A stretch of DNA of 64,000 nt from Bifidobacteriaceae bacterium UBA2724 (GTDB taxonomy: Bacteria > Actinomycetota > Actinomycetes > Actinomycetales > Bifidobacteriaceae): the NCBI GenBank assembly GCA_002353815.1, contig DEKK01000012.1:117154-181153 (forward strand), written 5' to 3'. Positions 39,595 through 61,358 of this stretch are shown here, piece after piece. Below the pieces are notes generated by a model. It did not search any database. It was not told where the DNA came from and saw nothing but the letters and a program-made list of their open reading frames with translations. How positions within the stretch are numbered: position 1 is the first letter of the stretch; the number at the start of each line of letters is the position of its first letter. The position numbers and the translations under genes were made by a program.

Positions 39595-39623
39595 ACCAGC
39601 TGCCTCCGATATCTTCCGGCATC

Positions 39624-39738: not shown

Positions 39739-39791
39739 CCGGGCCGATGCGGCCAGGAGCGACGGCGCGGGGCGACGGCGCGGGGCGCCAG

Positions 39792-39851
39792 TTATCCACA
39801 TGGGGTTGTCCACAGCCGTCAACACTCGTACACATTTTCGTTTGTCGTTCC
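39792..39851 (+). promoter_or_regulatory. Two DnaA boxes plus the shared competence-promoter motif upstream of yraN
   Basis: TTATCCACA 39792-39800, TTGTCCACA 39806-39814, ACACATTTTCG 39830-39840, GTTCC 39847-39851. Confidence 0.75.
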
Positions 39852-39883
39852 CGTCCCCGGCCACCGCGTGTTTGACTGGGCGC

Positions 39884-40333
39884 ATGAACACTCACAACGA
39901 CCCACGGAACACCGCGAAGGCCTTGGAACCGCTGGCCGCACGACTGACCGACGGCAGCCTGTCGCCCCATGAGCTCGGCCGCGCCGGCGAGGACTACGCC
40001 TGCGCTCTGCTCCGGACGCACGGATGGCGCGTCCTCGATCGCAACTGGCATTCCCGTTATGGCGAACTCGACATCGTCGGCGTCGACACCGACGGGTGCC
40101 TCGTTTTCGTCGAGGTGAAAACGCGCCGCGGAGTCGCCCACGGCACGTCCAAGGAAGCCGTCACCGAGCACAAGCGCACGGCGCTGCGCCACACGTCCTA
40201 CCAATGGTTGCGCGAACACCCCATGCCCGCACTCGCCATGCGCCACGACGTCATGGCCATCACCGTGCACCTTCCCCGCCCCGGCGAACCCGCCGCCCTC
40301 CCCCAGGTCGAGATGGTCAAGGGGGCGTTCTGA
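39884..40333 (+). CDS. yraN: YraN family nuclease (UPF0102)
   Basis: LGRAGEDYA, RNWHSRYGELDIV, LVFVEVKTR, RHDV. TGATG overlap with comM. Confidence 0.9.
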   Translation: MNTHNDPRNTAKALEPLAARLTDGSLSPHELGRAGEDYACALLRTHGWRVLDRNWHSRYGELDIVGVDTDGCLVFVEVKTRRGVAHGTSKEAVTEHKRTALRHTSYQWLREHPMPALAMRHDVMAITVHLPRPGEPAALPQVEMVKGAF

Positions 40334-41871
40334 TGCGCATCGGTTCCGCACTGTCCGTAGGCCTCATCGGCCTCAAGACGTTCCTCATCCAAGTGCAGGC
40401 GTTCATCTCACCCGGACTTCCTTATTTTTCAATCATCGGCCTGCCCGACACCTCGCTCAGCGAGGCGCGCGAACGTGTGAAATCGGCGTGCAAGGCCTGT
40501 TCGTTCGCATGGCCGGACACCCGCGTGACGGTCAACATGTCACCGGCTTCGCTTCCCAAACGCGGGTCCATGCACGACATGGCCATCGCCGCGGCCGTCC
40601 TGGAGGCGGCGCATGTCATCGACGCCGACGCGACGTCGAACGCGCTGGCACTGGGAGAGCTCAATCTGGACGGCACGGTGCTGCCCGTCACCGGCATGCT
40701 GCCGATCCTCATGCACGCCAGGTCGCAAGGCATCGCACGCGCATACGTCCCCGAGGCGAACATGGACGAGGCGCGCCTCGTTCCGGGCATCGAACCGGTG
40801 CCCATCCGCCATCTGGGCGAGTTCATGGAACGATGCGGCGGCAAAGCCTCATGGAACCTCGACACGAGCATCGACCTGCGCTCCACCGGCGACGACGCCC
40901 AGTCGACGGAGACGCAGCATCTCGAACGGCTCGACATGAGCCAGGTGATCGGCCAGAGCGACACGAAATGGGCGCTCGAAGTGGCCGCGGCGGGCGGCCA
41001 TCACATCCTCATGACCGGTCCGCCCGGCACGGGCAAGACGATGCTGGCCTCGCGCCTTCCGGGAATCCTTCCGCCCCTTGACGAAAGGGAACAGCTTGAA
41101 GTGGCGCAGATCCGATCGATATGCGGCACGCTGCCGGAGTTCGGCATCTCGGACATCCCGCCCTTCGAAGCGCCGCACCACACGGCGTCGGTGGCCTCTC
41201 TCGCGGGCGGTGGATCGGGCATCGCCCAGCCGGGTGCCATCACTCGGGCGCACAACGGCGTGCTGTTCCTTGACGAAGCGCCCGAATTCTCGCCCCGCGC
41301 ATTGCAATCGTTGCGCGAGCCGCTGGAGACCGGCTTCGTGTCGCTGTCACGGGCACGGGGCACGACCCTGTATCCCGCGAGGTTCCAGCTGGCGATGGCC
41401 GCCAACCCGTGCCCCTGCGGGCATGGGTGGGGACGGGCCGAGAACTGCACTTGCAAACCCCAGGAACGCATGAGGTATTGGAACCGGCTGTCGGGACCGA
41501 TTCTCGACCGCATTGACATCCAGGTCGACGTGCCGCCCGTGACGTCGCTGGATACTCCCAGCGAGCCGCCGGAAAGCAGCGCGCAGATCCGGAAACGCGT
41601 GGTAGCCGCCCGCGCCGCGGCATGCGAGCGCTTCGCCGAGCAAGGCTGGTGCTGCAACGCCCAGGCGAGCGGAGAGTGGCTGCGGGCGCACACCCCTCCC
41701 GCGGCGCGTCGTTGCGTGGATGAAGCCCTGAGGGAGGAACGCCTCTCGCTGCGCGGCGCCGACCGCGCACTGCGCCTCGCCTGGACGCTTGCGGATCTGG
41801 AAGGAAAGACGATCCCCGACGCCGACGACACGGCTGCGGGAATCATGCTCAGGACGAGGTTACGACAATGA
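40333..41871 (+). CDS. comM: ComM/YifB Mg-chelatase-like AAA+ ATPase
   Basis: IIGLPDTSLSEARERV, Walker A GPPGTGKT, PFEAPHHT, LFLDEAPEF, AANPCPCG, LSGPILDRIDI, RLAWTLADL. Confidence 0.93.
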   Translation: MRIGSALSVGLIGLKTFLIQVQAFISPGLPYFSIIGLPDTSLSEARERVKSACKACSFAWPDTRVTVNMSPASLPKRGSMHDMAIAAAVLEAAHVIDADATSNALALGELNLDGTVLPVTGMLPILMHARSQGIARAYVPEANMDEARLVPGIEPVPIRHLGEFMERCGGKASWNLDTSIDLRSTGDDAQSTETQHLERLDMSQVIGQSDTKWALEVAAAGGHHILMTGPPGTGKTMLASRLPGILPPLDEREQLEVAQIRSICGTLPEFGISDIPPFEAPHHTASVASLAGGGSGIAQPGAITRAHNGVLFLDEAPEFSPRALQSLREPLETGFVSLSRARGTTLYPARFQLAMAANPCPCGHGWGRAENCTCKPQERMRYWNRLSGPILDRIDIQVDVPPVTSLDTPSEPPESSAQIRKRVVAARAAACERFAEQGWCCNAQASGEWLRAHTPPAARRCVDEALREERLSLRGADRALRLAWTLADLEGKTIPDADDTAAGIMLRTRLRQ

Positions 41872-43418
41872 ACGACATCACCGGCACCAACCACGCCGCC
41901 GATGCCCACGGCGGCAACATGACAGGGCCGAACGCCCCGGTGGACGCTGCACGGGTCACGCCGCCACGAGCCGCACCGCGCACAGCAGCGCCATCACGGG
42001 AAACGGCGCCGGACGCGCAGACGATGGAGACGGAGCGGAGCACGGAAGCCATCGCGCACGCCATCGCCCTGGCCGCTCTGGTCGCGGTCAGCGATGGGGC
42101 CGACGTACTCATGACGACATTGACGCGTCTCATGCCCGCGTGGGAGATCTGGCAGATCCTGCGCGAGGCCTCGGATCCCACGCGGGAGCTCCTCGCCCGC
42201 GCCGTGGCGGATGACGAGACCCGGATGCGCTTCATGAGCGACGCGAAGCGGAAATCGGCGTGGACGTCGCGCATCGCCCAATGGGCGCACCGCGCCCGCG
42301 ACCTGCCCCGCGACGGAGAGGAGCTGCGGGACCTTCTGAGCGGCGAGGGCAGATACCGCATCGTCACTCCGGCCGACGCCTGCTGGCCAGGGCAGCTGGA
42401 CGACCTCGACGATGCACCGCTGTGCCTGTGGACGCTGGGAGACGCGCGATGCCTTGCGGCCTGCCGCAGTATGGTCGCCGTGGTCGGGTCCCGGGAGGCG
42501 AACGCGTATGGTGTCCGCGCCGCGCGGTCGATTGCCTCCACTGCAGCCAGCGCCGGCCATGTCGTGGTCTCGGGCGGGGCGCTGGGCATCGACGCGGCGG
42601 CTCACCACGCGGCCCTCGAAGCCCGGCGCGGAGCCACCGTCGCGGTGATGGCAGGCGGATTGGTCCACATGGGCCCCTCGTCCAACCTCGGGCTGTTCGA
42701 CGACATCATCGCCGCCCACGGCGCCGTGATCAGCGAGGTCGCGCCGCAGACCGTTCCTCTGGCACGCAGGTTCCTGGTCCGCAACCGCATCATCGCGGCG
42801 CTGGCCGGCATCGTGGTCGTGGCGCAGGCCCGGTATCGGTCCGGCGCCATCAACACCGCCACCCACGCGGCGCGGCTCAACCGCGCGGTGATGGCCGTCC
42901 CTGGCGACATCGATGCGGCGAGCAACGCCGGATGCAACGAGCTCATCTACAACGGCAAGGCGATACTGCTGCCGCGCCCCGGCGCCGTGCTCGACATGAT
43001 CGTCGAACGACACGACCCGCCCCGCGACGGCGAGCTCTTCGACCCGTCGCAGACCGAAACCGCACCGCGCATGGGCGTTTCCCGCCCATGTCTCGTGGAA
43101 GAGGCGGCTGACACCGCCCCGGCACGCGCAGATGCGAATCCTACAGACGTGGATTCCACAGACGAGGGCCCCGCAGGCGAAAGCGCAGTCCCGCCACCGC
43201 CCGGAGCGGGGAGCGACATGGGCGGAACCATCGTGAAAGCGATCCGCGCATTGCGGCGCCAGAGGCATCCCACCGATGCCGAATCCATCCGTGCATACCT
43301 GCGGGCCCATGGATTCGCGTCCGTCACGGTGCGCCAGACGGCGACGCATCTGGGAACCCTCGAGATGGAGGGGAAGGTAACGAGGCAGGACAATGGCACG
43401 TTCCGGCTGCGATGCTGA
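41868..43418 (+). CDS. dprA: DNA-processing protein DprA
   Basis: VAVVGSREANAYG, VSGGALGIDAAAH, FLVRNRIIAAL, RSGAINTA, VPGDID..SNAGCNELI, C-terminal winged helix. Confidence 0.93.
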   Translation: MNDITGTNHAADAHGGNMTGPNAPVDAARVTPPRAAPRTAAPSRETAPDAQTMETERSTEAIAHAIALAALVAVSDGADVLMTTLTRLMPAWEIWQILREASDPTRELLARAVADDETRMRFMSDAKRKSAWTSRIAQWAHRARDLPRDGEELRDLLSGEGRYRIVTPADACWPGQLDDLDDAPLCLWTLGDARCLAACRSMVAVVGSREANAYGVRAARSIASTAASAGHVVVSGGALGIDAAAHHAALEARRGATVAVMAGGLVHMGPSSNLGLFDDIIAAHGAVISEVAPQTVPLARRFLVRNRIIAALAGIVVVAQARYRSGAINTATHAARLNRAVMAVPGDIDAASNAGCNELIYNGKAILLPRPGAVLDMIVERHDPPRDGELFDPSQTETAPRMGVSRPCLVEEAADTAPARADANPTDVDSTDEGPAGESAVPPPPGAGSDMGGTIVKAIRALRRQRHPTDAESIRAYLRAHGFASVTVRQTATHLGTLEMEGKVTRQDNGTFRLRC

Positions 43419-43458
43419 GCCAACCGGGATGGTGCCGTTGGCGCTGTCCCCAGTTCTG

Positions 43459-43547
43459 GCTCGCATCCGGGCACCGCGGACCGTTGATCATAGGCGCGGC
43501 CAACGTAGAAAGGCGACAGCTCACATCCGGGCACCGCGGACCGTTGA
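43459..43547. repeat. Two 29-bp direct repeats with a 60-bp period
   Basis: GCTC(G/A)CATCCGGGCACCGCGGACCGTTGA at 43459-43487 and 43519-43547, separated by 31 unrelated nt. Confidence 0.85.
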
Positions 43548-43694
43548 CAACGTCCGTGCCTTCCGACAAGCCCACCGCGCCCGGTCATCTTCGTCGGCAC
43601 CGCCCTTCGCCTTGGCGCGACCGCCGGCAAAGCCCCTCAATCCCCTCACATTCCCGCCGCGGCACTGTTGCGGGGTCGTGACACAATCAAAGGC

Positions 43695-45545
43695 ATGAGT
43701 CCTCAACAGGTGAAAGACAAGTATGATCTCATCATCGTCGGCGCCGGCGCGGCGGGGTTGTCGGCCGCCCTCGGCTTCCTGCGTTCCTATGATCTGACCG
43801 GGGCGAGCGCATACCCCGACGTGCTTGTCATCTCGAAGCTGCAATCGCTGCGCTCCCACACGGGTTCGGCGGAAGGCGGCATCGCGGCCTCGCTGGGCAA
43901 TGTGGAAAAGGACGATTGGCACTGGCATTACTTCGACACTGTCAAAGGCGGCGACTATCTGGTCGACCAGGACATGGCCGAGATTCTCGCCCGCGAGGCC
44001 CCGGCCACCGTTGTGCAGCTCGAACACGATGGCGTGGCGTTCTCCCGTCTGGACAACGGCAAGATAGCGCAGCGTCTGTTCGGCGGGCACACGTCGAATT
44101 TCGGCGAACAGTCCGTGCACCGCACGGCGTATGCCGCCGACCGCATCGGCCACCAGATTCTTCACTCCCTGTGGCAGCAATGCGTGGCCGAGGACGTCGA
44201 ATTCGCCGAGGAATGGTACGTGACCGACCTCGCCATCGAACGCAACGACGGCGCAGAGGCGACGTGCAGCGGAGTCGTGGTGCTCGACACGCACACCGGC
44301 GAGCTCCATGAACTCAAGGCATCGAACGTCATCATCGCCACCGGAGGGGCGGGGCGACTGTTCCACACCACGTCGAATTCCTGGGATCTGACAGGCGATG
44401 GGCTCGCCCTCGCCGTGCGCGCCGGGCTCAAACTGGAAGACAGCGAATTCGTGCAGTTCCACCCCACGGGACTGGCCCACACGGGCATCCTGCTGTCCGA
44501 GGCCGCGCGTGGCGAAGGCGGCGTGCTGCGCAACAGCGAGGGCGAGGCTTTCATGAAGCGGTACGCGCCCGAGCACGCCGACCTGTCGGCCCGCGACGTC
44601 GTCACCCGGTCCATCGCATCCGAGGTCAGGGCCGGCCGTGGTGTCGCCGACCCCCTCGACCCAGACGGCCCCAAGGACTGCGTCTGGCTCGACCTGAGGT
44701 CCTTGGGCCGCGACATCCTCGAATCCAAACTGCCCGAGGTGTATTCGACAATCAGGAATTACGCGGGCATCGATGCCGCCACCGATCTCGTGCCGGTGAA
44801 ACCGACCGCGCATTACACGATGGGAGGCATCCCCATCAACGCGAACGGCGAGGTCTATGACTACCACGACGGCGCACGGCATATCGTAACGGGATTGTAT
44901 GCGGCCGGCGAATGCTCGTGCGGCAGCGTGCACGGCGCGAACCGCCTCGGCGCCAACTCGCTGCTCGACGCCTGCCTATTCGGACACCGTTCGGGAGTTG
45001 CCGTCGCGCATCGCGTCATGGACGCCGCTTCGGACGCCCCTCTGCCGGACGCCGGCACGCGCGCGTTGGATGCGGCGTACGCAGACCGCAAGAACGCCAT
45101 CGCAGCCATCCTCGCCCCCACGGGTTCTGCCGCATCGGACAACGCCTCCGAATCCAACCCCTACGCGCTCATGTCGGCGCTGGGCGGACTCATGGAAAAG
45201 GATTGCGCCATCCGATGCAACACGGAAAGCATCGCCGACGCACAGCGCGTGATAAAGACCCAGCTCGCCCCGCAGGCCGAGGCCCTCACCGCGCACAGCG
45301 ACGTGGCGGAGTTCAACCAGGAGCTCACCGCGATCATGGAGGTGCGCAACCTCATCACCGTCGCACAGGTCATGCTGGCCGCCACCGCCGCCCGCAAGGA
45401 ATCGCGCGGCTCGCTGTTCCGCACGGACTGCCCCGAGCGCGACGATGCCAACTTCCTCAAGCATTCCCATGTCGACGCGCAGGGAGCTGTCGAATGGGAA
45501 CCTGTGACGATCAAGGACTTCAAGCCCGAGGCCCGCACATACTGA
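43695..45545 (+). CDS. sdhA: Succinate dehydrogenase/fumarate reductase flavoprotein subunit
   Basis: IVGAGAAG, covalent-FAD motif RSHTGSAEGG, QFHPTG, SEAARGEGG, HYTMGG, HGANRLGANSL, RKESRG. Confidence 0.95.
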   Translation: MSPQQVKDKYDLIIVGAGAAGLSAALGFLRSYDLTGASAYPDVLVISKLQSLRSHTGSAEGGIAASLGNVEKDDWHWHYFDTVKGGDYLVDQDMAEILAREAPATVVQLEHDGVAFSRLDNGKIAQRLFGGHTSNFGEQSVHRTAYAADRIGHQILHSLWQQCVAEDVEFAEEWYVTDLAIERNDGAEATCSGVVVLDTHTGELHELKASNVIIATGGAGRLFHTTSNSWDLTGDGLALAVRAGLKLEDSEFVQFHPTGLAHTGILLSEAARGEGGVLRNSEGEAFMKRYAPEHADLSARDVVTRSIASEVRAGRGVADPLDPDGPKDCVWLDLRSLGRDILESKLPEVYSTIRNYAGIDAATDLVPVKPTAHYTMGGIPINANGEVYDYHDGARHIVTGLYAAGECSCGSVHGANRLGANSLLDACLFGHRSGVAVAHRVMDAASDAPLPDAGTRALDAAYADRKNAIAAILAPTGSAASDNASESNPYALMSALGGLMEKDCAIRCNTESIADAQRVIKTQLAPQAEALTAHSDVAEFNQELTAIMEVRNLITVAQVMLAATAARKESRGSLFRTDCPERDDANFLKHSHVDAQGAVEWEPVTIKDFKPEARTY

Positions 45546-45570
45546 CGCGAAGCAGAAAGGAGCACCAGCA

Positions 45571-47127
45571 ATGACAAGCACAGAGCAGATGATCACCGTC
45601 ACGTTGCGCGTCCACCGCTTCGCGCCCCAGGCACAGACAGCGCCGCAGGCGCAGGAGGCCAAGCAGCCCGACGCCCCGCAGCGCCGCAGGCGCCACAGCA
45701 GTCCGTTCGCTCGACTTGACGCCAAACGCGCACACGGCGGCGATGGCACCGACGGCGCGAACCGCTCGTTCGCCTCGGCACGCCGCCGCGAACACGTGAG
45801 CCCCTTCGCACGGCTCGACGCCCAACGCGCCGCCAACGACACCAACGCCAACAGCGCAGCCAGCGCATCCACGCCGGCCGCAGCACCCGCCCCCGCACAC
45901 CGCCGCCACGACCACGTGAGCCCTTTCGCACGGCTCGACGCCCAACGCGCCACCAACGACGCCAACACCGACGCCAACACCGACACCAACACCGACACCA
46001 ACACCGACACCAACACCGGCACCAACGCCGCCAACGCATCCACGCCGGCCGCAGCACCCGCCCCCGCACACCGCCGCCGCGACCACGTGAGCCCCTTCGC
46101 ACGGCTCGACGCGCAGAAGGGCGCATCCCTCGCGGCAGCGACAGACGCTTCCCCCACCCCGGCCCCGCGGGCAACGGAAAACGCCTCCGCCGCCGTTTCC
46201 ATCGACCAGTTCCCCTACCTCATGCCCACGCACCGCCGCGCGCCCCGCCATGCGCACGCGCTTACGTCGCGCCGCGCGGCATCCACGCTCGGCGGAGCCC
46301 CGGTCGCAGGAGGATTCGCCGGCTCCAACGGCGGACGCGCCTGGATCCAGGAATACACGCTCGTCACCAACCCGCAGACGTCGCTGCTCGACTGCCTGCT
46401 GCGCATCAAACGCGAACAGGACCCGACGCTGGCATTCCGCTACTCCTGCGGGCACGGCATGTGCGGCTCCGACGCCGTGGCGATCAACGGCACCCCTTCG
46501 CTGCTGTGCAAGACCACGGTGGCGCAGGCCGCGGCGAGTGCGAAAACCGATTCGGGATTCCGCCACACCGCCCCTTCCGATGCCTCCGCGCCATCGGAAG
46601 CGCGCTCCGGCGCGGCAACCGAGGACAACGCACTGCCCGATTCCGTCACCATCGACCTTGCGCCCATCGCCGGATTCGAGCAAAAACGCGACCTCATCGC
46701 CGACATCGAGCCCATGCTCGACCAGATCCGCGCACTCGCCCCGTATCTCGAGGCCCGCGGTGACCTGGCCCGCACGGCGGACGGCAAGATCAACGTTTTC
46801 GAATACCTGCAGTCCCCCGAACAGCTGGCGAAATACGAACAGCTCACCACCTGCATCGCCTGCGGCGCGTGCGAGGCGAGCTGCCCCGTCTTCGTCGGCG
46901 GCGACGCATTCGTCGGCCCGGCAGCGCTCGTCAACCAGATCCGTTTCGTCGAAGATTCCCGCGACGGCAAATCCGCCGACCGCATGAAAGCCTTGGGCGA
47001 ATCCGACGGACTCTCCGCATGCCAGTCCGTGCGCGCCTGCGGCCTGAACTGCCCGCAGGGCATCGACGTGGGCGAAGTCATCTGGCAGTTCATCCAGCGC
47101 ACCCAGACCATGCAGCAGGAGGGCTGA
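45571..47127 (+). CDS. sdhB: Succinate dehydrogenase/fumarate reductase iron-sulfur subunit with a large repeat insertion
   Basis: 2Fe-2S CGHGMCGSD...C, 4Fe-4S CIACGACEASCP, 3Fe-4S CQSVRACGLNCP. About 235 aa inserted near the N-terminus. Confidence 0.9.
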   Translation: MTSTEQMITVTLRVHRFAPQAQTAPQAQEAKQPDAPQRRRRHSSPFARLDAKRAHGGDGTDGANRSFASARRREHVSPFARLDAQRAANDTNANSAASASTPAAAPAPAHRRHDHVSPFARLDAQRATNDANTDANTDTNTDTNTDTNTGTNAANASTPAAAPAPAHRRRDHVSPFARLDAQKGASLAAATDASPTPAPRATENASAAVSIDQFPYLMPTHRRAPRHAHALTSRRAASTLGGAPVAGGFAGSNGGRAWIQEYTLVTNPQTSLLDCLLRIKREQDPTLAFRYSCGHGMCGSDAVAINGTPSLLCKTTVAQAAASAKTDSGFRHTAPSDASAPSEARSGAATEDNALPDSVTIDLAPIAGFEQKRDLIADIEPMLDQIRALAPYLEARGDLARTADGKINVFEYLQSPEQLAKYEQLTTCIACGACEASCPVFVGGDAFVGPAALVNQIRFVEDSRDGKSADRMKALGESDGLSACQSVRACGLNCPQGIDVGEVIWQFIQRTQTMQQEG

Positions 47128-47360
47128 GAGGAGCCCCGCGGCGGAGTCCGTCTCCATCTGCCCGGCTTCGCGGATTCCCGGCGTCTCCGCCATCCCGCCC
47201 GCCGTGGCTGGATCGCCCCACCCCGTCTTCCGGGCACTGCCTTCAAGGCCATCCACCCTACCGGGCCCTGCCCCGCGTCCATCCCCGCCCGCACCTCGCA
47301 GCGTGTCCAAAGGTGGACATTTTCTTCATCCCTGCCCTTTTTCTCTGTACGCTTGCAACC

Positions 47361-48032
47361 ATGAGCCTGAATGTGTATGAAAACATCGCCCGCGGCTGGG
47401 ATTTCATCGAAGACGAGGCCTTGCAGCAAGAGACGGACATCGAGAAAACCGCACGTCGTGAACTCAAAAGCGAGGGGCTGCGCGCCTGCTTTGCATCGCA
47501 GGCATCGTTCATCGCCCATGAAGCGCAGGCCGTGAGGGCACAGTCGGTCATCCTCCTCGGAGGCGCGCCGGTCATCGAGGCCATGCACCTCGCCGACACC
47601 CTCGTCAGCGAAGGCCAGGTGACGATCATCGACACGTCGAAGCCCGCCACCCAGCTGGCTTCGCGACTGTTCAAGTCATTCGAAGACACGAGCACCATCC
47701 GCGTGCGCATCATCAACACAAGCGGCGACGTGTACCTGCCGCGCCTCAATTCGATGGATTACGACATAATCGTGGCCGGCGGCTCCCCCGAGAACTACAC
47801 CACCGCCTACGAAAACGCCGAACGCCTGCTTCATCGCGGCGGCGAGCTGATTTTCAGCGACATCCTCGCCTATCTCAACGAAGACTCAAAGGGAGGCGTT
47901 CCGAATCCCGCCGACCGCACGTCCAAGGCGACCTCCATGCGTTCCCTGATGAAGCAGCTCAAGGACGACGACCGCTTCTCGTCCACGCTCGTTTCGGTCG
48001 GCACCGGCCTGTCTCTCAGCGTGCTTCGTTAG
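47361..48032 (+). CDS. O-methyltransferase-like protein (degenerate SAM motif)
   Basis: Rossmann-like order (VILLGG, VTIID, LPRLNSMDYDIIV, RLLHRGGELIFSD, VGTGLSL). Start placed 7 nt after a TACGCT hexamer. Confidence 0.65.
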   Translation: MSLNVYENIARGWDFIEDEALQQETDIEKTARRELKSEGLRACFASQASFIAHEAQAVRAQSVILLGGAPVIEAMHLADTLVSEGQVTIIDTSKPATQLASRLFKSFEDTSTIRVRIINTSGDVYLPRLNSMDYDIIVAGGSPENYTTAYENAERLLHRGGELIFSDILAYLNEDSKGGVPNPADRTSKATSMRSLMKQLKDDDRFSSTLVSVGTGLSLSVLR

Positions 48033-53163: not shown

Positions 53164-53372
53164 GATTTCTCTTCTTTCAGTTATGACATTTTGCGAACAC
53201 GTCAGGATCAACAATTGCCATGATAACCATAGTGGTCCCAAACAGGGACATCTTGTCACTTGGCAAGACAACCAATCCAACCGTGGTCTCTGGCACGGGG
53301 ATCATTCCCCGGGGCCGAAGCCGGAATCCCGGACCTCCGACCGCGGAAGGCACCAAGGCGCACGGTCGGAGA

Positions 53373-54479
53373 TCACGCCATGCTGATCCGGTCGAGCGGC
53401 ATGGCGGAGTCGATGGCGAAATCGGGGTGGGACGGACGGACGCCGGCCTCGACGAGGTTCGAGCCCAGCATGGCGACCATGGCGCCGTTGTCGGTGCACA
53501 GTTTGATTTCGGGGATCCGCACGTCCACACCAGCCTCCTTGCCCGCCTCGGCGAGCGCGGCACGCAGCTGGGAGTTGGCGGAGAAGCCGCCGCCGACGAT
53601 CAGGGTGGTCGCATCGAATTTCCTGCAGGCGCTCATGGCCTTGCGGCTGAGGACCGTGGCGACCGAGTTCGCCAGTGACGCGCACACGTCGTCGACCGGC
53701 ACATCGAGGCCATCGGCGCGGCGGGATTCCACCCAGCGTGCAACGGCGGTCTTGACCCCGGAGAAACTGAAGTCGAACGGATGCTCGGCGCCGGCACGCC
53801 CCTGGGTGAGCCCCATGGGCACTTTCAGCGCATTCGGGTCGCCATGCTGGGCATGTCTGTCGATATGCGGCCCTCCCGGATAGGGGAATCCCAGAAGGCG
53901 CGCGACCTTGTCGAAGCACTCCCCCGCCGCGTCGTCGAGCGTGCTGCCCACGACCTCGACATGCGTGGCGATGTCGGTGACGCGCAGCAGCGACGTATGC
54001 CCGCCCGACACGATGAGGGCCAGCGTGTTGTCAGGCAGTTCGCCGAACTGCAGCTGCGTCACGCACACATGCCCGATCACGTGGTTGATACCGTAGATTG
54101 GCTTGCCGGCGGCCCAGGCGAGAGCCTTGGCGCCCGAGACGCCCACGGCGAGGCATCCCGCGAGCCCAGGCCCCGCCGACACCGCTATCGCATCGACGTC
54201 GCCGATGTCCATACCGGCGTCGGACAGCGCCTTCGACACGACGGGCACGAAAGCCTCGGCGTGGGCGCGGCTGGCGATCTCGGGGATCACGCCGCCGTAC
54301 CGCGCGTGCTCGTCCATCGACGAGGCGACGACGTTGCTCAGCAGCGTGCGTCCGCGCACCACGGCCGCCGCCGTCTCGTCGCACGTCGATTCGATGCCCA
54401 GCACCACCGGGCCATTCGCCAGGTCATACCGGACGGCGGGCATGGGGCTTGCGCCCGGTTGCGAAATCTCATTCGTCAT
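53373..54479 (-). CDS. tsaD: tRNA t6A N6-threonylcarbamoyltransferase
   Basis: LGIESTCDET, YGGVIPEIASRAH, NHVIGH, VSGGHT, DDAAGECFDK, FSFSGVKT, CTDNGAMVA. Confidence 0.97.
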   Translation of the reverse strand: MTNEISQPGASPMPAVRYDLANGPVVLGIESTCDETAAAVVRGRTLLSNVVASSMDEHARYGGVIPEIASRAHAEAFVPVVSKALSDAGMDIGDVDAIAVSAGPGLAGCLAVGVSGAKALAWAAGKPIYGINHVIGHVCVTQLQFGELPDNTLALIVSGGHTSLLRVTDIATHVEVVGSTLDDAAGECFDKVARLLGFPYPGGPHIDRHAQHGDPNALKVPMGLTQGRAGAEHPFDFSFSGVKTAVARWVESRRADGLDVPVDDVCASLANSVATVLSRKAMSACRKFDATTLIVGGGFSANSQLRAALAEAGKEAGVDVRIPEIKLCTDNGAMVAMLGSNLVEAGVRPSHPDFAIDSAMPLDRISMA

Positions 54480-55119
54480 GGTTGTCCTTCCCTGCCAGAC
54501 CTTGCGTTTCCATGGCACCCGCGGCAGCCGTTTGCTGCGACACGGGAAGCGCGAATCCGACGACGCGCGGGGCAAGGTCCACCGCCATCACATAGGCGTC
54601 TTTGTTCTCTGGCTGATAATAACGCCTGCGCAGCCCGATGCGCTCGAACCCATGCCGGGTGTACACCGCGAGCGCGGGCGCGTTGTCCGTGCGCACCTCG
54701 AGCAGCATGCGCCGGGCCCCCTGCGCGCGGGCGGATTCGAGCAAGGCGTCGAGCAGGGCGCTGGCGATGCCGCGGCGCTGCCAGCGTTCGCCGACCCCGA
54801 CGGTCATGAGCTCGGCGTCGTCGCCGTCGAACCAGTATCCCGCGTATCCGCGCACCACGTCGGGCGCCTCCGCATCTGCGGGCGCGGAGGCGGAAGCGGT
54901 ATCGGCCGCTGTGCCATCGGCTGCCGCGCCGGCCGCGCCATCGGTCGTTTCTCCGGCCACGGCGGCATCCACGGCTGGCTCGACGTCCACAAGATAATGC
55001 CTGGCGGGCGCATGGAATTCTTCGTCGAGCATGGTCCGGCTCCATCCTCCCTTGCCGAAGAGCTGCGATTCAAGCTCGGCCACCTGGCCGAGGTCGGATT
55101 CGCGCATGGCGCGGATCAC
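54469..55119 (-). CDS. rimI: Ribosomal-protein-alanine N-acetyltransferase
   Basis: QRRGIASAL, LEVRTDNAPALAVY, GLRRRYYQPE, DAYVM. Ala-rich internal insertion. GTG start. Confidence 0.9.
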   Translation of the reverse strand: MIRAMRESDLGQVAELESQLFGKGGWSRTMLDEEFHAPARHYLVDVEPAVDAAVAGETTDGAAGAAADGTAADTASASAPADAEAPDVVRGYAGYWFDGDDAELMTVGVGERWQRRGIASALLDALLESARAQGARRMLLEVRTDNAPALAVYTRHGFERIGLRRRYYQPENKDAYVMAVDLAPRVVGFALPVSQQTAAAGAMETQGLAGKDNHDE

Positions 55120-56063
55120 CGGACATCGCCCTTCGTCTCACCGTCGGAGGCTTCCTTGGGATTCCCATCCGGCACGCGCGGCGACGCGGATGTGTCCGCC
55201 GGCGCCGTCCCGCGCTTCTCCGCTTCTTTCTGCAGATCCTCGGCGGTCATCACGTGCTTGAGCGGCGCAGGCTGGGACACGTCGGGGCGGCGCAGATAGA
55301 GGGGTTCGGTGGGGCATCCGTCGCCAGCCTTCAGATGGGCCAGCGCAAGGCGCTCCATGATGGCCGGCCCTTCCGCCCCGGCTCCATGCAGGGCCGAGTC
55401 ATCGAGCACCTGTCCGAGCGCGACGATGCCCTGGAACGCGTCGATGTAGCGCAGCGCGCCCTTGCCGCAAATGTCGATGACGATCTCTCCGCCTTCCGGA
55501 GTGTCGCGGCCGCGCAGCCATTCGTTGATGCGGTGCGCGATATGCCCCGCGTAGGCGATGTCCATGTCGAGGATGCGGTGCGGGATGGGGCTGTCCGGAC
55601 GCTTCTCATACAGCGCGTAATACAGCTGCTTGCGCCGAGCGTCATTGACCGCCAGGGTCAGATGGCGGCGTCCGTCGGGATTCGTCATCGAATCCACCCA
55701 CACGGCCTGCGGTTCGAGGATGTCCTGGCCAAGCACCTGCGCTCCTGTCGCCAGGCCGATTGCACGCGCGGCGACGATGCCGGCGCGCAGCCCGGTGAAC
55801 GGGGCCGGGCCGGTTCCCACCACGACGCGTCGGATGTCGGCGGGGACCAGGCCCGCCTCGGCCACCATGGAGTCGATGGCCGGCTGGAGCTTTTCGACGT
55901 GCGAGCGCGAATCGGGCTCGTAATGGGGCTCGTGCCCCACCACGCCCACCGTCGCGCCGAACGACGTGTCGATGACGAGCGTCGGCACGTCGTCGCCGGC
56001 TGGTTCTTGGTTGTTGTTGGCAGTGCTCGTGGCGCGGGCACCGCTGTGTGCTGTATCCATCAT
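55116..56063 (-). CDS. tsaB: t6A complex subunit TsaB
   Basis: LVIDTS, HVEKLQP, VGTGPAPFTGLRAG, DARRKQLY, PLYLRRPD. Confidence 0.93.
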   Translation of the reverse strand: MMDTAHSGARATSTANNNQEPAGDDVPTLVIDTSFGATVGVVGHEPHYEPDSRSHVEKLQPAIDSMVAEAGLVPADIRRVVVGTGPAPFTGLRAGIVAARAIGLATGAQVLGQDILEPQAVWVDSMTNPDGRRHLTLAVNDARRKQLYYALYEKRPDSPIPHRILDMDIAYAGHIAHRINEWLRGRDTPEGGEIVIDICGKGALRYIDAFQGIVALGQVLDDSALHGAGAEGPAIMERLALAHLKAGDGCPTEPLYLRRPDVSQPAPLKHVMTAEDLQKEAEKRGTAPADTSASPRVPDGNPKEASDGETKGDVR

Positions 56064-56284
56064 GTGCGCCTTCCTTGTGGTTTCCTGTCAGGTCTTCGTG
56101 CGCGGCGCGATGCCGAGTCCGAGGCGTGCGCGTCCGCTTTCATGCGGCGGTCCGGCGATCCGGATCGGCCCATTCGGCCGTCGCACCGATTGCGCAGCGC
56201 TGGCACGTGTCGGGCGGCATCATGCATGCCGCGATGCCGCCATCGCTCCGCCATTCGGTGCGCGTTCCGCCGCCTATCGAGTCG

Positions 56285-56881
56285 TCACGCCGGGCGGGCG
56301 TCCTCCACGCAGCGGCACAGCGAATCCATGCGCCGTCCCCAGCCCACGCCACGGAACGTCACGATGCGGGCGCCGTCGCTGGTGAGCACGTCGCCCCGTG
56401 AGGGGGCGGCGGGGCGCTCGATGCCGATTTCAAGCCTGTTGTCAGCCAGTTCCGCGGCCATCGCGCTGCCCCATTCGATGAGCACCACGGTGCCGGGACC
56501 GGGGTCTTCGAGTTCCTCGTCCAATCCCAGGGACTCGAGCTCGTCCATCAGCCTCGTCGCCGCCACCTGAGGACGGTCGTCGGAGCCGGGGAGCCGATAG
56601 GCGTCCACGTGCACCAGCGTGGCCGGCGCCCCATCGCCGAAACGCCCACGGAGTTCCCGGGCGATGGTGAACGTCGGCGACACGACCGGGCCGTCCACGG
56701 CCAGTCCCGTCCCCACTCCTTGTGCGAAAGTCGTTTTTCCGGCGCCGAGGGGCCCCGACAGAACCACGACGTCGCCTCCGTGCAGCACGGACGCCACGGC
56801 CGCCCCTAGGGCATGCATGGCCTCGGTCGTAGGCGCCCCCACGCTGAACGATGCTCCGTCCGACGGATTGTCGCCGCTCAT
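56285..56881 (-). CDS. tsaE: t6A complex ATPase TsaE
   Basis: LSGPLGAGKTTF, SPTFTI, HVDAYRL, LIEWG. ATGA overlap with holA. Confidence 0.95.
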   Translation of the reverse strand: MSGDNPSDGASFSVGAPTTEAMHALGAAVASVLHGGDVVVLSGPLGAGKTTFAQGVGTGLAVDGPVVSPTFTIARELRGRFGDGAPATLVHVDAYRLPGSDDRPQVAATRLMDELESLGLDEELEDPGPGTVVLIEWGSAMAAELADNRLEIGIERPAAPSRGDVLTSDGARIVTFRGVGWGRRMDSLCRCVEDARPA

Positions 56882-57846
56882 CTCATCCTCCCTTTGGAAC
56901 CAATGCATTCGATGGCGCGCTCCAGCGCATACACGGGGTCGCCTTGGTTGCTTTTGCTCTGGCTGTCGGCTTCGGCAAGCGCTTCGAAACAGGCACTCAT
57001 GCCATGCCCGTCCCAACCCCGTAGCTCGGACCTGAGCTGCGGGATCTTCCATTCGGGCGCGCCGACCTGGGATTCGTTGATGTCGCCCGACACCAGGGCG
57101 CCCACTTTCGCCAGCGACCTCATGCGTCCCGCGAGCGCCCCGACGATGACCGTCGGCGCGATGCCCTGCTCGACGGCGGCGCGCATCTTGACGATGGCCC
57201 CCGGCACGTCACCCGCGGCCGCAGTGTCGGCGACGTCGAAGCCCGTGGTCTGCGGATCCGCCGTCATGTATTCGTTGACGATCTGCAGGGTGATGGGGTT
57301 GTCGTCGAAATCCATGCACAGCTGCTCGCACATGGCGTACAGCTCGCCCGGATTATCGCCCATGATCGCTGCGAGCTGCTGCGCCGCGCGGTAGTCGATG
57401 GAACGGTTGAGGCTTTGGAACCGCTGGAGCACGAAATTGACCTGCGCCTTGGGTTTGCGCAGGTCGGGGATCGGGTCCTTGTATGCGCCGGCCTTCACCA
57501 TGGCGTCGAGGATGCGTTTGCCCTTCATGCCGCCGTCGTGCCGGCAGATGAGCACGGCCTCGGCGCCCGCCGGGTCCTTCGTCACCTCGGCGGTGTAGGC
57601 GGCGATGCGCTCGCCCACCGATGGGTCGATGTCCTGCAGGTCGAGCAACGTGACGATGCTCTGGGCAGCGAGGAAGGACGGGCTGACGGCGTCGTAGAAA
57701 TCGGCTTCGGTCACGGAGGCACCCTGCAGCTCGACCTCGTCGGCGTCGGGGAACGAAGCCCGCGCCTGCCGCTTGAGCTCGCGGATCCTTTGGGAGCCGA
57801 GGAACTCGTTGCCCCCGTACACGATCGTCACCGGATAGAATGCCAT
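56878..57846 (-). CDS. holA: DNA polymerase III subunit delta
   Basis: Actinobacterial HolA features (SPSFLA, HDGGMKGKRILD, TGFDVAD, PEWKI, DPVYALE) in the conserved comEC-holA context. The start could be 57906. Confidence 0.88.
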   Translation of the reverse strand: MAFYPVTIVYGGNEFLGSQRIRELKRQARASFPDADEVELQGASVTEADFYDAVSPSFLAAQSIVTLLDLQDIDPSVGERIAAYTAEVTKDPAGAEAVLICRHDGGMKGKRILDAMVKAGAYKDPIPDLRKPKAQVNFVLQRFQSLNRSIDYRAAQQLAAIMGDNPGELYAMCEQLCMDFDDNPITLQIVNEYMTADPQTTGFDVADTAAAGDVPGAIVKMRAAVEQGIAPTVIVGALAGRMRSLAKVGALVSGDINESQVGAPEWKIPQLRSELRGWDGHGMSACFEALAEADSQSKSNQGDPVYALERAIECIGSKGRMR

Positions 57847-57902
57847 ACCTGCTAATCTACACGCCGCAGCCCCGCCGCGCCGCATCGTTCGCCCAGAGCG
57901 CA

Positions 57903-59837
57903 TCATGGCCCTCCTTCCCTTTCGATTCCATGCGCCCGTCCAGCGCCATGCGCCTGTCCAGCACCGTGCGTCCGTCCAGCGCCATGTGCCTGACGCGGGG
58001 TGCGCGCACGGACGGGAGGCCTGGGGTCGTGGAACACGATGCGGATGGTCTCGCGCCACCACGCCGCCATACGCCACGCCGCCATCGTCACCGCGCCGAT
58101 GACGCGCGGACGGTCGCCGTCGGATGCCCCGGCCACTATCCCGCCGCGGCCCGCGAGCACCGACACGAGGTCATGGACGAGCACGACGCCCGCGACGAGC
58201 AGAATCTCGCACATCACGGCCAGTGCCGCGCCCCGCCATCCCGCTGGCCAGGCGCAGACAGACGACGCGGACCCGAACCACCGGGCGCACCGCTCCATGA
58301 GCGACGTGCATGCCGCCGCCAGCCATGCGAACGCATATCCCGCCGTCGGCGACGCCCAACTGACCGCGAGCGCCGCCAGCCCGCAGAGAGTGCCCAGTTC
58401 GACCAGCGGCGCCACCATGACGTTCGACAGAGGCGAAAGCACAGGCACGCCGTTGCCCAGCATGACCTGGACGGGCAACGAGAACGCCTGTGCGGCCACG
58501 GTGACCGCGAAAGGCGCCGCAACGATCCTGGGCATCAGCCTGCCCAACGCCGCCTCGACCACCGGGGCGAGCACGACGATTCCAGCCACCGACAGCGTCG
58601 AGAGCGCGAACCCGTAGCTCTGCGACAGCCCGGGACGCACCACGAGGCACAGCATGACGGTCCAGCACAGCGCGCTCATCGCCTGCGTGCGCCGACCGAG
58701 CGAAAGGCACACCGCCCCCAGGCTTCCCATGGCTGCGGCGCGTATCACGGAATCCGAAGGATACATGATCTGCGTCAGCAGCCAATTCGTTGCAAGGATC
58801 GCACAGGCCGTCACGCGGCGGGGTGCGAGCCGCCGTCGCAGAAGCCAGCCGACACCGCCGGCGAGCAGCACGAAATGCCCTCCCGAGACCGCCATGAGAT
58901 GCATGATGCCTGCGTTGCGGAAACTGTCGGTCAGGGCATGGGCGTATGTGGACGAGAGCATGCTCTCATCCGCGAGCGCGTTGATGGACGTATCCTGCCC
59001 CATGACCCCCAGCGTGAGCCCCGGGACAAGCACCTGCCCCTGCGCCGACAGCCGCGCCGTGACGCCGATGAAGGAATCCTGCGCCCGGCAGACCAAACGC
59101 TGCCAGACTCCCGGCTCGCGCATCTGCCCCCAGCCGGTGCCTTCCAGCGACGGCGATCCCCGCGACGGCGGGCCCGTGGCCTCGATCCACGCGACGTCGT
59201 CGCCGAAGGCCGCCTGCTTCGCCGCGCCCCGTACCCAATATTCCCCGCCCTGCTGCATCGCGCAGGCCGTCCTGTCGGTCCACAGGCGCACCTGCGCATG
59301 CGATGGCTGCGCCACTCCCCGCGCCGCGACCCACAGCACCTCGGCCGACGCCGAGCACGTCGAGCCACGACGGACCGACGCCTGCAGCGGCGAGGTCACA
59401 CGCACGCCGAAGGTCGCCACGCCCGCACCGGATGCGACGAAGCGATTCACGGGATCGGCACGAGCACGGAACTGTGAGAACCCCACGGACACCATCATCA
59501 CCGACACCGCCGCCGCGAGCGCGCAGGCCAGTGCCGGCAGATGCCGCACAGGGGCGCCCGTGGCAAGACGCGACACGAACGCCATCGCCCCCATGACCAC
59601 GGGGATGGCGATGACGGAGAAAACGACCCCCGCCTTCATGCCTGCGGCCGACGCGGCCAGGCACGCGCCCCAAGAGCACAACGCCACGGGCACCATGCGG
59701 TAGTCGCGGTCGCCGCGCTCGCGCTCGCGATACCGGCGCGGGACGCCGCGGGAAGGCCTTCCGCCGCTTCCGGTCCGCGCGCCAGTCCCGGCACGTTCTG
59801 CAGCGCCTCCTGGGAATCTGCGCACATGCACGCTCAT
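57903..59837 (-). CDS. comEC: ComEC DNA-uptake channel (competence domain; no C-terminal metallo-beta-lactamase domain)
   Basis: LVPGLTLG, FRNAGIMHLMAVSGGH, SVIRAAAMG, SYGFALS, LSNVMVAP. ATGA overlap with comEA. Confidence 0.9.
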   Translation of the reverse strand: MSVHVRRFPGGAAERAGTGARTGSGGRPSRGVPRRYRERERGDRDYRMVPVALCSWGACLAASAAGMKAGVVFSVIAIPVVMGAMAFVSRLATGAPVRHLPALACALAAAVSVMMVSVGFSQFRARADPVNRFVASGAGVATFGVRVTSPLQASVRRGSTCSASAEVLWVAARGVAQPSHAQVRLWTDRTACAMQQGGEYWVRGAAKQAAFGDDVAWIEATGPPSRGSPSLEGTGWGQMREPGVWQRLVCRAQDSFIGVTARLSAQGQVLVPGLTLGVMGQDTSINALADESMLSSTYAHALTDSFRNAGIMHLMAVSGGHFVLLAGGVGWLLRRRLAPRRVTACAILATNWLLTQIMYPSDSVIRAAAMGSLGAVCLSLGRRTQAMSALCWTVMLCLVVRPGLSQSYGFALSTLSVAGIVVLAPVVEAALGRLMPRIVAAPFAVTVAAQAFSLPVQVMLGNGVPVLSPLSNVMVAPLVELGTLCGLAALAVSWASPTAGYAFAWLAAACTSLMERCARWFGSASSVCAWPAGWRGAALAVMCEILLVAGVVLVHDLVSVLAGRGGIVAGASDGDRPRVIGAVTMAAWRMAAWWRETIRIVFHDPRPPVRARTPRQAHGAGRTHGAGQAHGAGRAHGIEREGGP

Positions 59838-61195
59838 ACCGTCACCTCCCCTCGGATTCTCGCCAGCGTCTTCGCGCCGATGCCCGGCACATTGAGCAGT
59901 TCGTCCACCGACGAATACGGACCGTGCCGGGTACGGTAGTCGATGATTTTCTGCGCCGTCGCCGGTCCCACGCCCTTGATGGTCTGCAGCTGCTCGCTCG
60001 TCGCCGTGTTTATGTTGACAAGCGCCGGCTGCGCCGCCGCGGACGACGCCGGTGCGGCCGCCGTGGCCGTTCCCGCGGCATTTGGAGTCTGGGAACCGGA
60101 ATCCACTGCCGCTCCCGCACTCGGACCCATCGTGGCAGACACGGCACCGCTTGCCGACCCGCCCGACGAGGCGGCGCCGTTCCACGACGACCCTTCGCCC
60201 GCGATTGCCTCAAGCTTGTTTCCCTGTTGTACGAGCAGCGTGAGGCTGGCGCACAGTGCCACGACGAGCACGAAGATGATGGACGCGCACGCCCCTTGGG
60301 AAATCTCGAAGCGCGGCGCATCGCGGACCTCTCGCCTGCCGTCCGTCCGCGCTGGTCCGGCCGGCACATCCCGCGCTGTGCCGCGGAAGCCACGGTGCGG
60401 CTTCCCCATCGCATCGCCGTTGCCGTCTTCCACGTTCCATGGCGCTTCGGCAGCGCCACCGACAGCACCACCGACAGCGCCACCGCCGTCAGCATTCCAC
60501 GGCGCATCGCCCGCGACACCACTGGCATCCGCCCCCTCATCCCACGGCACATCGCCACTGCCATAGGCGGCATCATCGGCATCGCCGATATCGTCGGATC
60601 CATCGCTCCAGGCTTCTCGAGAAGCGCGTCGAACAGGGGAAGGTGCGGCACGCGTGGCGTCGATGGGCGTCAGAATGCCGTATCCCGCCCATGGGTCATC
60701 GTCCGTGGCTTCGCTACGCGCCGCCGGACCACGGGAGGGTCTCCGTCTCCCGGCCGCCGCGACCCGCCGAGGGATCCCTTCGTCTTCCTCCCCACCGACA
60801 TCCCACGGCTCTCCGGTCTGCGCCAGCGCACCGCTGCCCCACGCCTCCCCGCCGTGCACCACACTGCCATCCTGCGCGAAGTCCGAGTCCTCCAGTCCCA
60901 GCGCCGCGGCATCGGTGTCATGAGGATCCACGCCGCTCAGCATGGCGAGCATGCCGGAACCGCGATGACGCGCCCCCGGCGCACGCGCCAGGCGTTCCGC
61001 CGGCGGGCGGCGCATCGGAACGCACTGGCGCACCGTCTCGTCCACATGGCGCGCCGTCTCGTCCGCATGGCGCGCCGGCACGCGTCCGTGGCGCTTCCCC
61101 GCGCCACGCGCCACGGAACGCCGCACCCGGCCATGCTCCCGGCCGAGCGCGCCGCGGTCGCCAAGCCCTGCGTCATGTCGCTGATATCTGTGCAT
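59834..61195 (-). CDS. comEA: ComEA DNA receptor (TM helix + HhH domain) with a long disordered N-terminus
   Basis: VNINTATSEQLQTIKGVGPATAQKIIDYR...DELLNVPGIGAKT and one TM helix. Start 61195 chosen from the promoter alignment with yraN. Confidence 0.85.
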   Translation of the reverse strand: MHRYQRHDAGLGDRGALGREHGRVRRSVARGAGKRHGRVPARHADETARHVDETVRQCVPMRRPPAERLARAPGARHRGSGMLAMLSGVDPHDTDAAALGLEDSDFAQDGSVVHGGEAWGSGALAQTGEPWDVGGEEDEGIPRRVAAAGRRRPSRGPAARSEATDDDPWAGYGILTPIDATRAAPSPVRRASREAWSDGSDDIGDADDAAYGSGDVPWDEGADASGVAGDAPWNADGGGAVGGAVGGAAEAPWNVEDGNGDAMGKPHRGFRGTARDVPAGPARTDGRREVRDAPRFEISQGACASIIFVLVVALCASLTLLVQQGNKLEAIAGEGSSWNGAASSGGSASGAVSATMGPSAGAAVDSGSQTPNAAGTATAAAPASSAAAQPALVNINTATSEQLQTIKGVGPATAQKIIDYRTRHGPYSSVDELLNVPGIGAKTLARIRGEVTV

Positions 61196-61227
61196 GCCCC
61201 GATGATGGCACAGCGGCGATTCCCATC

Positions 61228-61358
61228 GGAACAATCGGCGAAAATGTGCGTCAGTGACACCGAAAACTGTGGATAACCCCCGAAAATCACGGTTTTGTGG
61301 ATAACCCACCTTCCGGCGAACGGTTTCGACAGGTTATCCACAGACACGGTTATCCACA
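61228..61358 (-). promoter_or_regulatory. Four perfect DnaA boxes plus the shared competence-promoter motif upstream of comEA
   Basis: TGTGGATAA at 61268-61276 and 61296-61304. TTATCCACA at 61334-61342 and 61350-61358. CGAAAATGTGC at 61239-61249. GGAAC at 61228-61232. Confidence 0.85.

Follow-up and report, generated by a model that had tools for sequence, protein, structure and literature searches.

A conserved promoter module with DnaA-box words marks a candidate transformation regulon in Bifidobacteriaceae

Genes for natural transformation are marked by short regulatory elements in several well-studied bacteria, among them the ComK boxes of Bacillus subtilis, the cin-box of streptococci read by ComX/SigX, the CRP-S sites used with Sxy/TfoX in Haemophilus and Vibrio, and the SigH system of staphylococci. 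Here we describe a promoter element in a 64,000-nucleotide (nt) stretch of DNA from a member of the Bifidobacteriaceae, where it precedes the uptake and recombination operons yraN-comM-dprA and comEA-comEC. We call the whole stretch the window and give coordinates as positions in it unless a contig is named; the genome to which it belongs (G000) comprises 2.07 Mb in an assembly that is 88% complete. As in the ComK, cin-box and CRP-S regulons, one short conserved word marks pilus genes, comEA/comEC, comF, dprA and ssb, so that the regulon is legible in the sequence. Unlike them, the element belongs to another phylum and is a different word, with no ComK, ComX or Sxy logic, and the marked set takes in a Tad/Flp pilus, an EccC-like ATPase, WXG100 proteins, an M23 peptidase and a nuclease.

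A second point of comparison is provided by DnaA-regulated promoters and DnaA-box clusters, with which the element shares perfect 9-mers identical to origin boxes, arranged in pairs or clusters, in both orientations and near promoters; the box pairs also recall the preference for closely spaced pairs reported for Escherichia coli DnaA. The DnaA regulons described so far are without DNA-uptake or recombination machinery, unlike the genes studied here. The promoters also differ from DnaA-regulated ones in that their proximal site, at which DnaA binding is putative, stands at a single fixed position (-53), and in that most of the family carries a distinct proximal word, TTCGACCACAT, which is unused in the origin regions examined. 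Because this family-wide word departs from the DnaA-box consensus and binding is putative, we do not count these promoters as established members of a DnaA regulon. By analogy, the element works like that of a competence regulon marked by a cis-element, written in the words of DnaA-regulated promoters. Slager and colleagues reportedly found in 2014 that replication stress induces competence of Streptococcus pneumoniae through the copy number of comCDE near oriC. The proposal considered below would likewise tie uptake to the replication state, but the pneumococcal link is one of gene dosage near oriC, whereas the link here is hypothetical and would run through DnaA boxes at late-gene promoters.

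Within the family, natural transformation has been shown in Bifidobacterium pseudocatenulatum, B. longum and B. breve (Watanabe et al., ISME J 2026; PMC13660472). Under transformation-promoting conditions the Tad cluster, comEA-comEC and dprA-comM-yraN of B. pseudocatenulatum rose more than 10-fold, as did ssb and genes for a WXG100 protein, a PGAP1-like protein, an unknown protein and an LPXTG protein. Deletion of the Tad cluster, of comEA-comEC or of dprA-comM-yraN abolished transformation, as did single loss of yraN, comM or dprA; deletion of the WXG100 or the PGAP1-like gene left it unchanged (PMC13660472). That set was defined by RNA-seq and deletions, and the paper contains the words "promoter", "DnaA" and "sigma" zero times and names no motif or regulator. 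The preliminary description of our window named no competence regulator for Bifidobacteriaceae; a view that the family has no described competence system is outdated as regards transformation and the co-induced genes, both published in 2026, though not as regards promoter or regulator. The set marked by the motif in our genome closely overlaps the one defined by expression in B. pseudocatenulatum, the common gene families being Tad, comEA-comEC, dprA-comM-yraN, ssb, WXG100 and a PGAP1-like hydrolase. This overlap lends independent support to co-regulation, although the two sets come from different genera and ours, in contrast to one obtained by RNA-seq, is defined by a cis-element and known from sequence alone.

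For Micrococcus luteus, papers of 2021 and 2026 both state that the regulatory cascade is unidentified (PMC12849477). Its comEA/EC promoter is derepressed by mutations in clpP, clpX and the gene for a small HTH_17 protein, Mlut_14660, which is divergent from the SAF-TadZ operon (PMC8467076). Our literature searches found no paper describing the promoter element and no described tad or competence regulator in Bifidobacterium, and a search for the word TTCGACCACA and its variants returned unrelated primers only.

A promoter module shared by transformation genes

The yraN and comEA operons carry the same promoter module, and its geometry recurs on further transformation-related genes of the genome, which sustains the earlier proposal that the two operons form one regulon. 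Judged from the sequence, the regulon and the anatomy of its promoters are very probably real. Every letter of the alignment of the two promoters that had been described was recovered in the window sequence, where the parts lie as follows (numbering in the promoters takes the A of the ATG as +1).

39674-39741, forward strand: terminator-like hairpin after the pdxK-like gene, CUCCGCCGCAUCCG...CGGAUGCGGCGGAG followed by UUUCGUUUUCC (RNA fold z -5.74)
39792-39800, forward strand: distal perfect DnaA box of the yraN promoter, TTATCCACA
39806-39814, forward strand: second DnaA box of the yraN promoter, TTGTCCACA, starting 20 nt (about two helical turns) before the proximal box
39826-39840, forward strand: proximal DnaA-box-like word of the yraN promoter with its T tract, TCGTACACATTTTCG, the CACA starting at -53 from the ATG
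39831-39840, forward strand: CACATTTTCG of the yraN promoter
39847-39851, forward strand: GTTCC of the yraN promoter, on the weak -35-position hexamer TTCCCG (39848-39853)
39869-39877, forward strand: extended -10 of yraN, TG at -15/-14 and hexamer TTGACT at -12 to -7
61425-61486, reverse strand: terminator-like hairpin after leuS, GGGCCGUGCGAACC...GGUCCGCACGGCCC followed by UUUU (RNA fold z -5.89)
61334-61342 and 61350-61358, forward strand: two perfect TTATCCACA boxes, inverted relative to comEA and missing from the preliminary list
61304-61296, reverse strand: perfect DnaA box of the comEA promoter, TTATCCACA, in comEA orientation
61276-61268, reverse strand: perfect DnaA box of the comEA promoter, TTATCCACA(G), starting 23 nt before the proximal box
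61239-61253, reverse strand: proximal box of the comEA promoter with its T tract, TGACGCACATTTTCG, the CACA starting at -53 from the ATG
61248-61239, reverse strand: CACATTTTCG of the comEA promoter
61232-61228, reverse strand: GTTCC of the comEA promoter, on the -35-position hexamer TTCCGA (61231-61226)
61202-61210, reverse strand: extended -10 of comEA, TG at -15/-14 and hexamer CATCAT at -12 to -7

TTRTCCACA words occur six times in the window against 0.25 expected, a number reached in none of 100 shuffles, and all six lie in the yraN and comEA promoters and fit TT(A/G)TNCACA, from which the proximal boxes depart by one or two mismatches. The string CACATTTTCG-N6-GTTCC is present twice against 0.10 expected, with no third exact copy in the 2.07-Mb genome. 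A chance origin of both shared words is excluded. Two strong hairpins (z -5.7 and -5.9) separate pdxK from the yraN boxes and leuS from the comEA boxes and end in short U-rich tails, one UUUCGUUUU and the other UUUU; a strict, simple terminator scan called neither of them, and a simple sigma-70 scan likewise called nothing in either intergenic region.

We next considered the anatomy of the module in an alignment of 15 promoters. The -10 hexamer has the form nAnnnT at -12 to -7, with a TG at -15/-14 that makes it an extended -10, and the -35 position holds a poor hexamer (TTCCCG in yraN, TTCCGA in comEA). Upstream of this, the proximal CACA begins at -53, and behind it comes a T/A-rich tract (-49 to -38) that reads TTTTCG here and GTTTTTTAAA, CCGAAAA or similar in relatives. 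Further upstream, at a distance of two or three helical turns from the proximal box, there are one to three perfect DnaA boxes, the nearest starting 20 or 23 nt away in the two window promoters and 31-32 nt away in same-genus comEA promoters; since these spacings amount to two or three turns, the boxes would lie on one face of the helix. Conservation extends beyond the 9-mer, as CACA-TT at the proximal box and as CACA-G(G) at the upstream boxes.

This anatomy accounts for part of what had been noted about the last 32 nt before the two start codons, in that the shared GTG at positions 17-19 holds the TG of the extended -10 and the shared T at 26 is the T at -7. GTTCC, which had been proposed as part of a factor site, coincides with the -35 position, and neither the other members nor the relatives conserve it; we rejected it as a factor half-site. 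The leaderless reading of both genes fits a -10 hexamer that lies 6 nt ahead of the ATG in aligned members: six of the seven aligned promoters with a 53-nt spacer have TGn followed by nAnnnT ending 6 nt before the start codon and are without a Shine-Dalgarno sequence, the exception being the M23 peptidase promoter, which has no TG. As only one sigma-70 gene was detected in the genome, the form is most simply read as a primary-sigma, activator-type promoter with an extended -10, which would yield leaderless mRNA in most members. Many open reading frames (ORFs) of the regulon begin with ATGAC(A/T), and a 14-mer, ATGACACAGAACAC, stands at the leaderless start of two unrelated genes (G000:C4:200816 and yraN of G006, locus L019); ATGAC(A/T) may be favoured as a 5' end for leaderless translation, or be a product of chance.

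To find further members we scanned the genome for a box (at most one mismatch) lying no more than 70 nt upstream of a CACA, itself followed after a fixed spacer by an ATG opening an ORF. The number of sites peaked sharply at a spacer of 53 nt, with seven sites; other spacings gave zero to three, and the reversed genome gave none. The same geometry was observed on at least 12 to 15 transcription units. Besides yraN-comM-dprA and comEA-comEC, the sites with the 53-nt spacer precede tadZ (CpaE-type, followed by tadA, tadB and tadC), a SAF/CpaB-like gene, the gene for an FtsK/EccC-like ATPase (C16:103881-105851), a small WxG-like ORF (C4:200421-200816) followed by a gene for a 515-residue GXSXG protein, and the M23 peptidase gene (C1:73141). 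The distance from box to -10 is kept, but a leader and a Shine-Dalgarno sequence are added, upstream of an ssb paralogue, a gene for a GmrSD_C nuclease with an N-terminal membrane anchor (C2:32489), the canonical WXG100 gene (C16:274474) and flp-tadE-tadF. A leaderless variant precedes comF, with a 54-nt spacer and the proximal box only, no upstream box being present. The prediction that further copies would stand before tad pilus genes, comF and ssb was therefore borne out. In total the genome holds 47 perfect TTRTCCACA words, of which about 19 lie in module promoters and about 11 around dnaA and in other AT-rich clusters on contig C10.

Single boxes with the geometry of the module are also found before topA, a DUF4192 gene and three other genes. 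The topA gene (C17:82463 onward, locus L194:164-3112) has a perfect TTATCCACA at C17:82386-82394 and the -10 hexamer TATATT at the same distance, and similar single-box promoters precede the DUF4192 gene (C1:16766) and a ThiF-family gene (C4:360736). Given these three promoters, the factor that reads the boxes may also have targets outside competence. The FtsK/EccC-like gene is directly followed by a WhiB-family gene (C16:105904-106185, locus L028:3905-4186; Pfam 3.9e-27), whose product could be a transcription factor encoded by the regulon itself, acting in a feed-forward manner. The module also predicts further members of the transformation machinery, namely the FtsK-like ATPase, the WXG100 proteins, the M23 peptidase and the membrane nuclease. 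It marks parts that resemble type VII secretion (EccC-like, WXG100), a peptidoglycan hydrolase and a probable surface nuclease. We speculate that killing of neighbours or release of DNA is co-regulated with uptake, by analogy with pneumococcal fratricide and the type VI secretion system of Vibrio, and, as a further speculation, that the FtsK-like ATPase is a motor for DNA import.

Conservation in the family and beyond

A search of 150 family genomes for the exact composite TTRTCCACA-N8-25-CACATTTTCG gave no orthologous match. Alignment of orthologues indicates that the exact composite is missing in relatives because the word has diverged, and we rejected a reading of this result as non-conservation, as the orthologous promoters keep the design. 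In four genomes of the same genus, the yraN and comEA promoters have TT(A/G)TCCACA(G) followed by (T)CCACATTGGTCGAA, with the ATG 53-54 nt past the CACA. The ATG assigned to comEA, which had been chosen partly for its fit to the promoter alignment and was in doubt on that account, is upheld by an in-frame ATG 52-54 nt past the proximal CACA in all six comEA orthologues examined (the four of the same genus, G015 and G005). Across the family, 28 of 32 yraN orthologues have an in-frame ATG 52-54 nt past a CACA, and this position is conserved between genera whose flanking sequence is not.

The proximal word takes the family form TTCG(A/T)(C/T)CACAT. Most genera have TTCGACCACAT and genus g2 has TTCGTTCACAT; the family consensus of the yraN -10 region is TGnTGAACT/TGGACT. 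The pattern TTCGWYCACA-N48-50-ATG was present in 81 of 100 family genomes, typically in 5-12 copies compared with about 0-1 in a backwards control. In five complete genomes the genes behind the pattern were yraN, comEA, tadZ, SAF, FtsK-like, WXG100-like and comF, with a few others, such as a class I tRNA synthetase, SIR2 and DUF559. Conservation of the motif in orthologous promoters, on which the earlier proposal depended, is thus seen in yraN orthologues, in the family genomes at large and in the recurrence of the same gene families in five genomes. None of six genomes of the small-genome genus g12 (0.6-0.9 Mb) contained the pattern, and yraN was likewise not found in them; in genus g10, which also has small genomes, the pattern is nearly absent and yraN was not found. 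Genomes of g12 and g10 can serve as natural controls in a phylogenetic-profile search for the regulator.

Outside the family, TT(A/G)TCCACAG is paired before yraN in Nocardia and Rhodococcus and single in Branchiibius, and none was found before yraN in the Bacillota or Chloroflexota examined. A family-conserved module of nucleotide precision that marks functionally proven genes makes an actinobacterial competence switch directly testable, and knowledge of the switch could ease the transformation of bifidobacteria.

Candidate readers of the boxes

The perfect boxes are the same 9-mer that forms clusters in the genome's own dnaA-flanking origin region (contig C10) and that stands beside dnaA in five relatives, a finding that agrees with their earlier identification as DnaA-box words. 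A single gene with a Bac_DnaA_C domain was found in the genome, and a second DnaA-like DNA-binding protein was rejected as a candidate, the only other weak match being a wrong frame of uvrB. The upstream words are clustered, occur in both orientations, and are canonical boxes in genera g1 and g2 and in Nocardia/Rhodococcus, varying in g2 only at position 5. We chose DnaA as the reader because it is the sole protein found here with that known specificity, and we tentatively suggest that it reads the perfect boxes in this genome, probably with a second contact at the proximal word. We take Rv2415c to be the comEA homologue of Mycobacterium tuberculosis. IDAP-seq with M. tuberculosis DnaA gave a weak 3.6-7.2-fold enrichment at 300 nM in a window 92 nt upstream of this gene (PMC7738170 Table S8). 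Taken as a whole, the explanation that we favour, while rating it somewhat below an even chance, is a conserved transformation regulon with one promoter design whose boxes are read by DnaA.

Under such a scheme, protein bound to the perfect boxes would help to fill the weak proximal box, and from about -54 the bound protein would recruit RNA polymerase in class-I fashion, with the T/A tract possibly offering the alpha subunit a place to land. The operons would all be switched at the same time, on or off, and would be expressed according to how much DnaA is present or to its nucleotide state; a further contact at the proximal word is likely. We regard as doubtful the more ambitious form of this idea, in which DnaA would govern natural transformation as its master switch in the Bifidobacteriaceae, and perhaps in Actinobacteria at large, the perfect boxes loading it onto weak boxes at -53 in all promoters of pilus, uptake and recombination genes, so that uptake is turned on or off with the state of replication initiation. 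If DnaA is the reader, horizontal gene transfer in gut commensals would be linked to replication status, a new kind of input to competence, and its binding would make the approximately 20 promoter boxes a sizeable DnaA sink outside the origin.

Several observations weigh against DnaA in this role. Two or three positions of the family-wide proximal word TTCGACCACAT depart from the origin box, and still the word is preserved unaltered, with 32 copies in G015 as opposed to one in the control. The dnaA-flanking origin regions examined lack it and have TTATCCACA instead. The recognition helix of DnaA is the same in all six genomes compared, and the conserved letters reach past the 9-mer. The pattern resembles selection in favour of a specific reader and not of weak DnaA boxes in general. 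No competence genes are among the five strongest DnaA sites of M. tuberculosis and M. smegmatis; in M. luteus, the mutations that derepress comEA/EC fall in the HTH_17 protein and ClpXP and not in dnaA (PMC8467076); and replication stress is not among the published inducing cues of B. pseudocatenulatum, which are ionic and pH conditions (PMC13660472).

Several of these observations fit an alternative in which a dedicated competence regulator reads the boxes, its site resembling a DnaA box and perhaps competing with it, so that DnaA would have no part or would interfere. We consider this a serious possibility, to be held as tentatively as DnaA binding to the perfect boxes. A non-consensus word that is exact across most genera and strongly enriched, absent from origin regions under an unchanged DnaA DNA-binding helix, and flanked by conserved letters speaks for such a protein, and the genetics of M. 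luteus points to a small DNA-binding protein, with the strongest mycobacterial DnaA sites lying elsewhere. Moreover, in G005, G016 and G006 a canonical box stands beside TTCG(A/T)CCACAT in fixed order, as in TTATCCACATTCGACCACATT, and this fixed adjacency suggests either two specificities or one longer site. On the other hand, we found no candidate gene: apart from the product of the whiB gene that follows the FtsK-like gene, the members examined with Pfam include no recognisable DNA-binding protein. Here, in g2 and in Nocardia/Rhodococcus, the upstream words match the DnaA box perfectly, varying only at position 5, at which DnaA is tolerant, and a protein with the exact specificity of DnaA would bind oriC too. 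If a protein other than DnaA reads the module, that protein would be the missing actinobacterial competence regulator.

A more specific version, which we consider very improbable, has a small BldC-like HTH_17 protein comparable to Mlut_14660 acting as a repressor, bound head-to-tail to 9-bp repeats of the AATTxxxxC type that overlap CACATTTTCG-N6-GTTCC. The systems of BldC and Mlut_14660 (PMC5859096, PMC8467076) resemble ours in having asymmetric head-to-tail words in variable number upstream of actinobacterial com and SAF-TadZ genes, and ATTTTCGCC|GATTGTTCC at comEA and CATTGGTCGAA in the same genus resemble the BldC repeats AATTCGGTC|GAATTTCGC (PMC5859096). In M. luteus, mutations in Mlut_14660 derepress the comEA/EC promoter. 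The likeness of CATTGGTCGAA to AATTCGGTCGAA is superficial; the conserved core here is CCACA and not AATT, and GTTCC, which would form the second "repeat", is not conserved. The genome yielded no HTH_17 or excisionase-type domain above the cut-off, its weak matches being HspR-like, MerR and TetR proteins and one membrane-anchored Xis-like protein, and a BldC-type gene was also undetected in a complete module-bearing relative, G015, which has the largest motif set and only one weak match.

We give equally little credence to the view that the boxes are DnaA reservoirs of the datA/DARS kind, or remnants of repeated elements, with no control over transcription. About 40% of the genome's perfect boxes lie in small clusters outside the origin, as in the DnaA-box clusters of B. 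subtilis and datA of E. coli, and additional letters such as cgggTTATCCACCGCG or CACTGACGCACA are common to three sites; yet 15 promoters here and hundreds across the family keep the distances to the -10 and the ATG exact to the nucleotide, the position is kept between genera whose flanks differ, and the downstream genes share a functional theme and match the published co-induced set.

The least credible reader is an alternative, competence-type sigma factor (ComX or SigH type) recognising CACATTTTCG and GTTCC, as the preliminary description had allowed, for although a competence gene set without a good -35 shares non-canonical upstream letters, only one Sigma70_r2 gene scored above the cut-off in the 88%-complete genome, a survey of 37 Bifidobacteriaceae genomes is reported to have found no WhiG-type sigmas (PMC13595943), the conserved word at -59 to -49 is too distant from the extended -10 to be a -35 element, and the -10 region is of the primary-sigma TGn-nAnnnT type. 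Two other assignments were rejected along the way: a WhiG/sigma-28 reading of GCCGATT, on account of its spacing and of the failure to find WhiG-type sigmas in the surveyed Bifidobacteriaceae, and a RecA-independent (PafBC-type) promoter motif, the spacing of which does not fit.

Genes of the two operons and the source organism

The genes behind the two window promoters are listed below with their Pfam matches, which also confirm LeuS and the PdxK-like kinase as the flanking genes.

39884-40333, forward strand: yraN (UPF0102, 149 residues; Pfam 2.7e-23), predicted leaderless, its ATG being the predicted transcription start
40024-41871, forward strand: comM (Mg_chelatase/ChlI; Pfam 1.7e-86), given as the longest ORF, the true start probably being near 40330
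41868-43418, forward strand: dprA (DNA_processg_A; Pfam 3.3e-63)
59834-61195, reverse strand: comEA (453 residues from the ATG at 61195, C-terminal HHH_3; Pfam 3.5e-22), with a predicted leaderless start
57903-60185, reverse strand: comEC (Competence domain; Pfam 3e-38), given as the longest ORF, the true start probably being near the comEA stop
56878-58077, reverse strand: holA-like gene (DNA polymerase III delta), the last of the cluster, with a weak Pfam match (1.4e-4) below the cut-off

The ComEA protein is unusually long, with about 390 residues free of any Pfam match ahead of the C-terminal HHH_3 DNA-binding domain, and its same-genus orthologues have N-terminal parts that are likewise long and poorly conserved. 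DNA nearly identical to positions 39600-41600 of the window occurs in sheep, pig and bovine gut or faecal metagenomes from nine studies, which identifies the source organism as a member of the livestock gut Bifidobacteriaceae. The closest named relatives of its YraN are those of Bifidobacterium species, at only about 50% identity.

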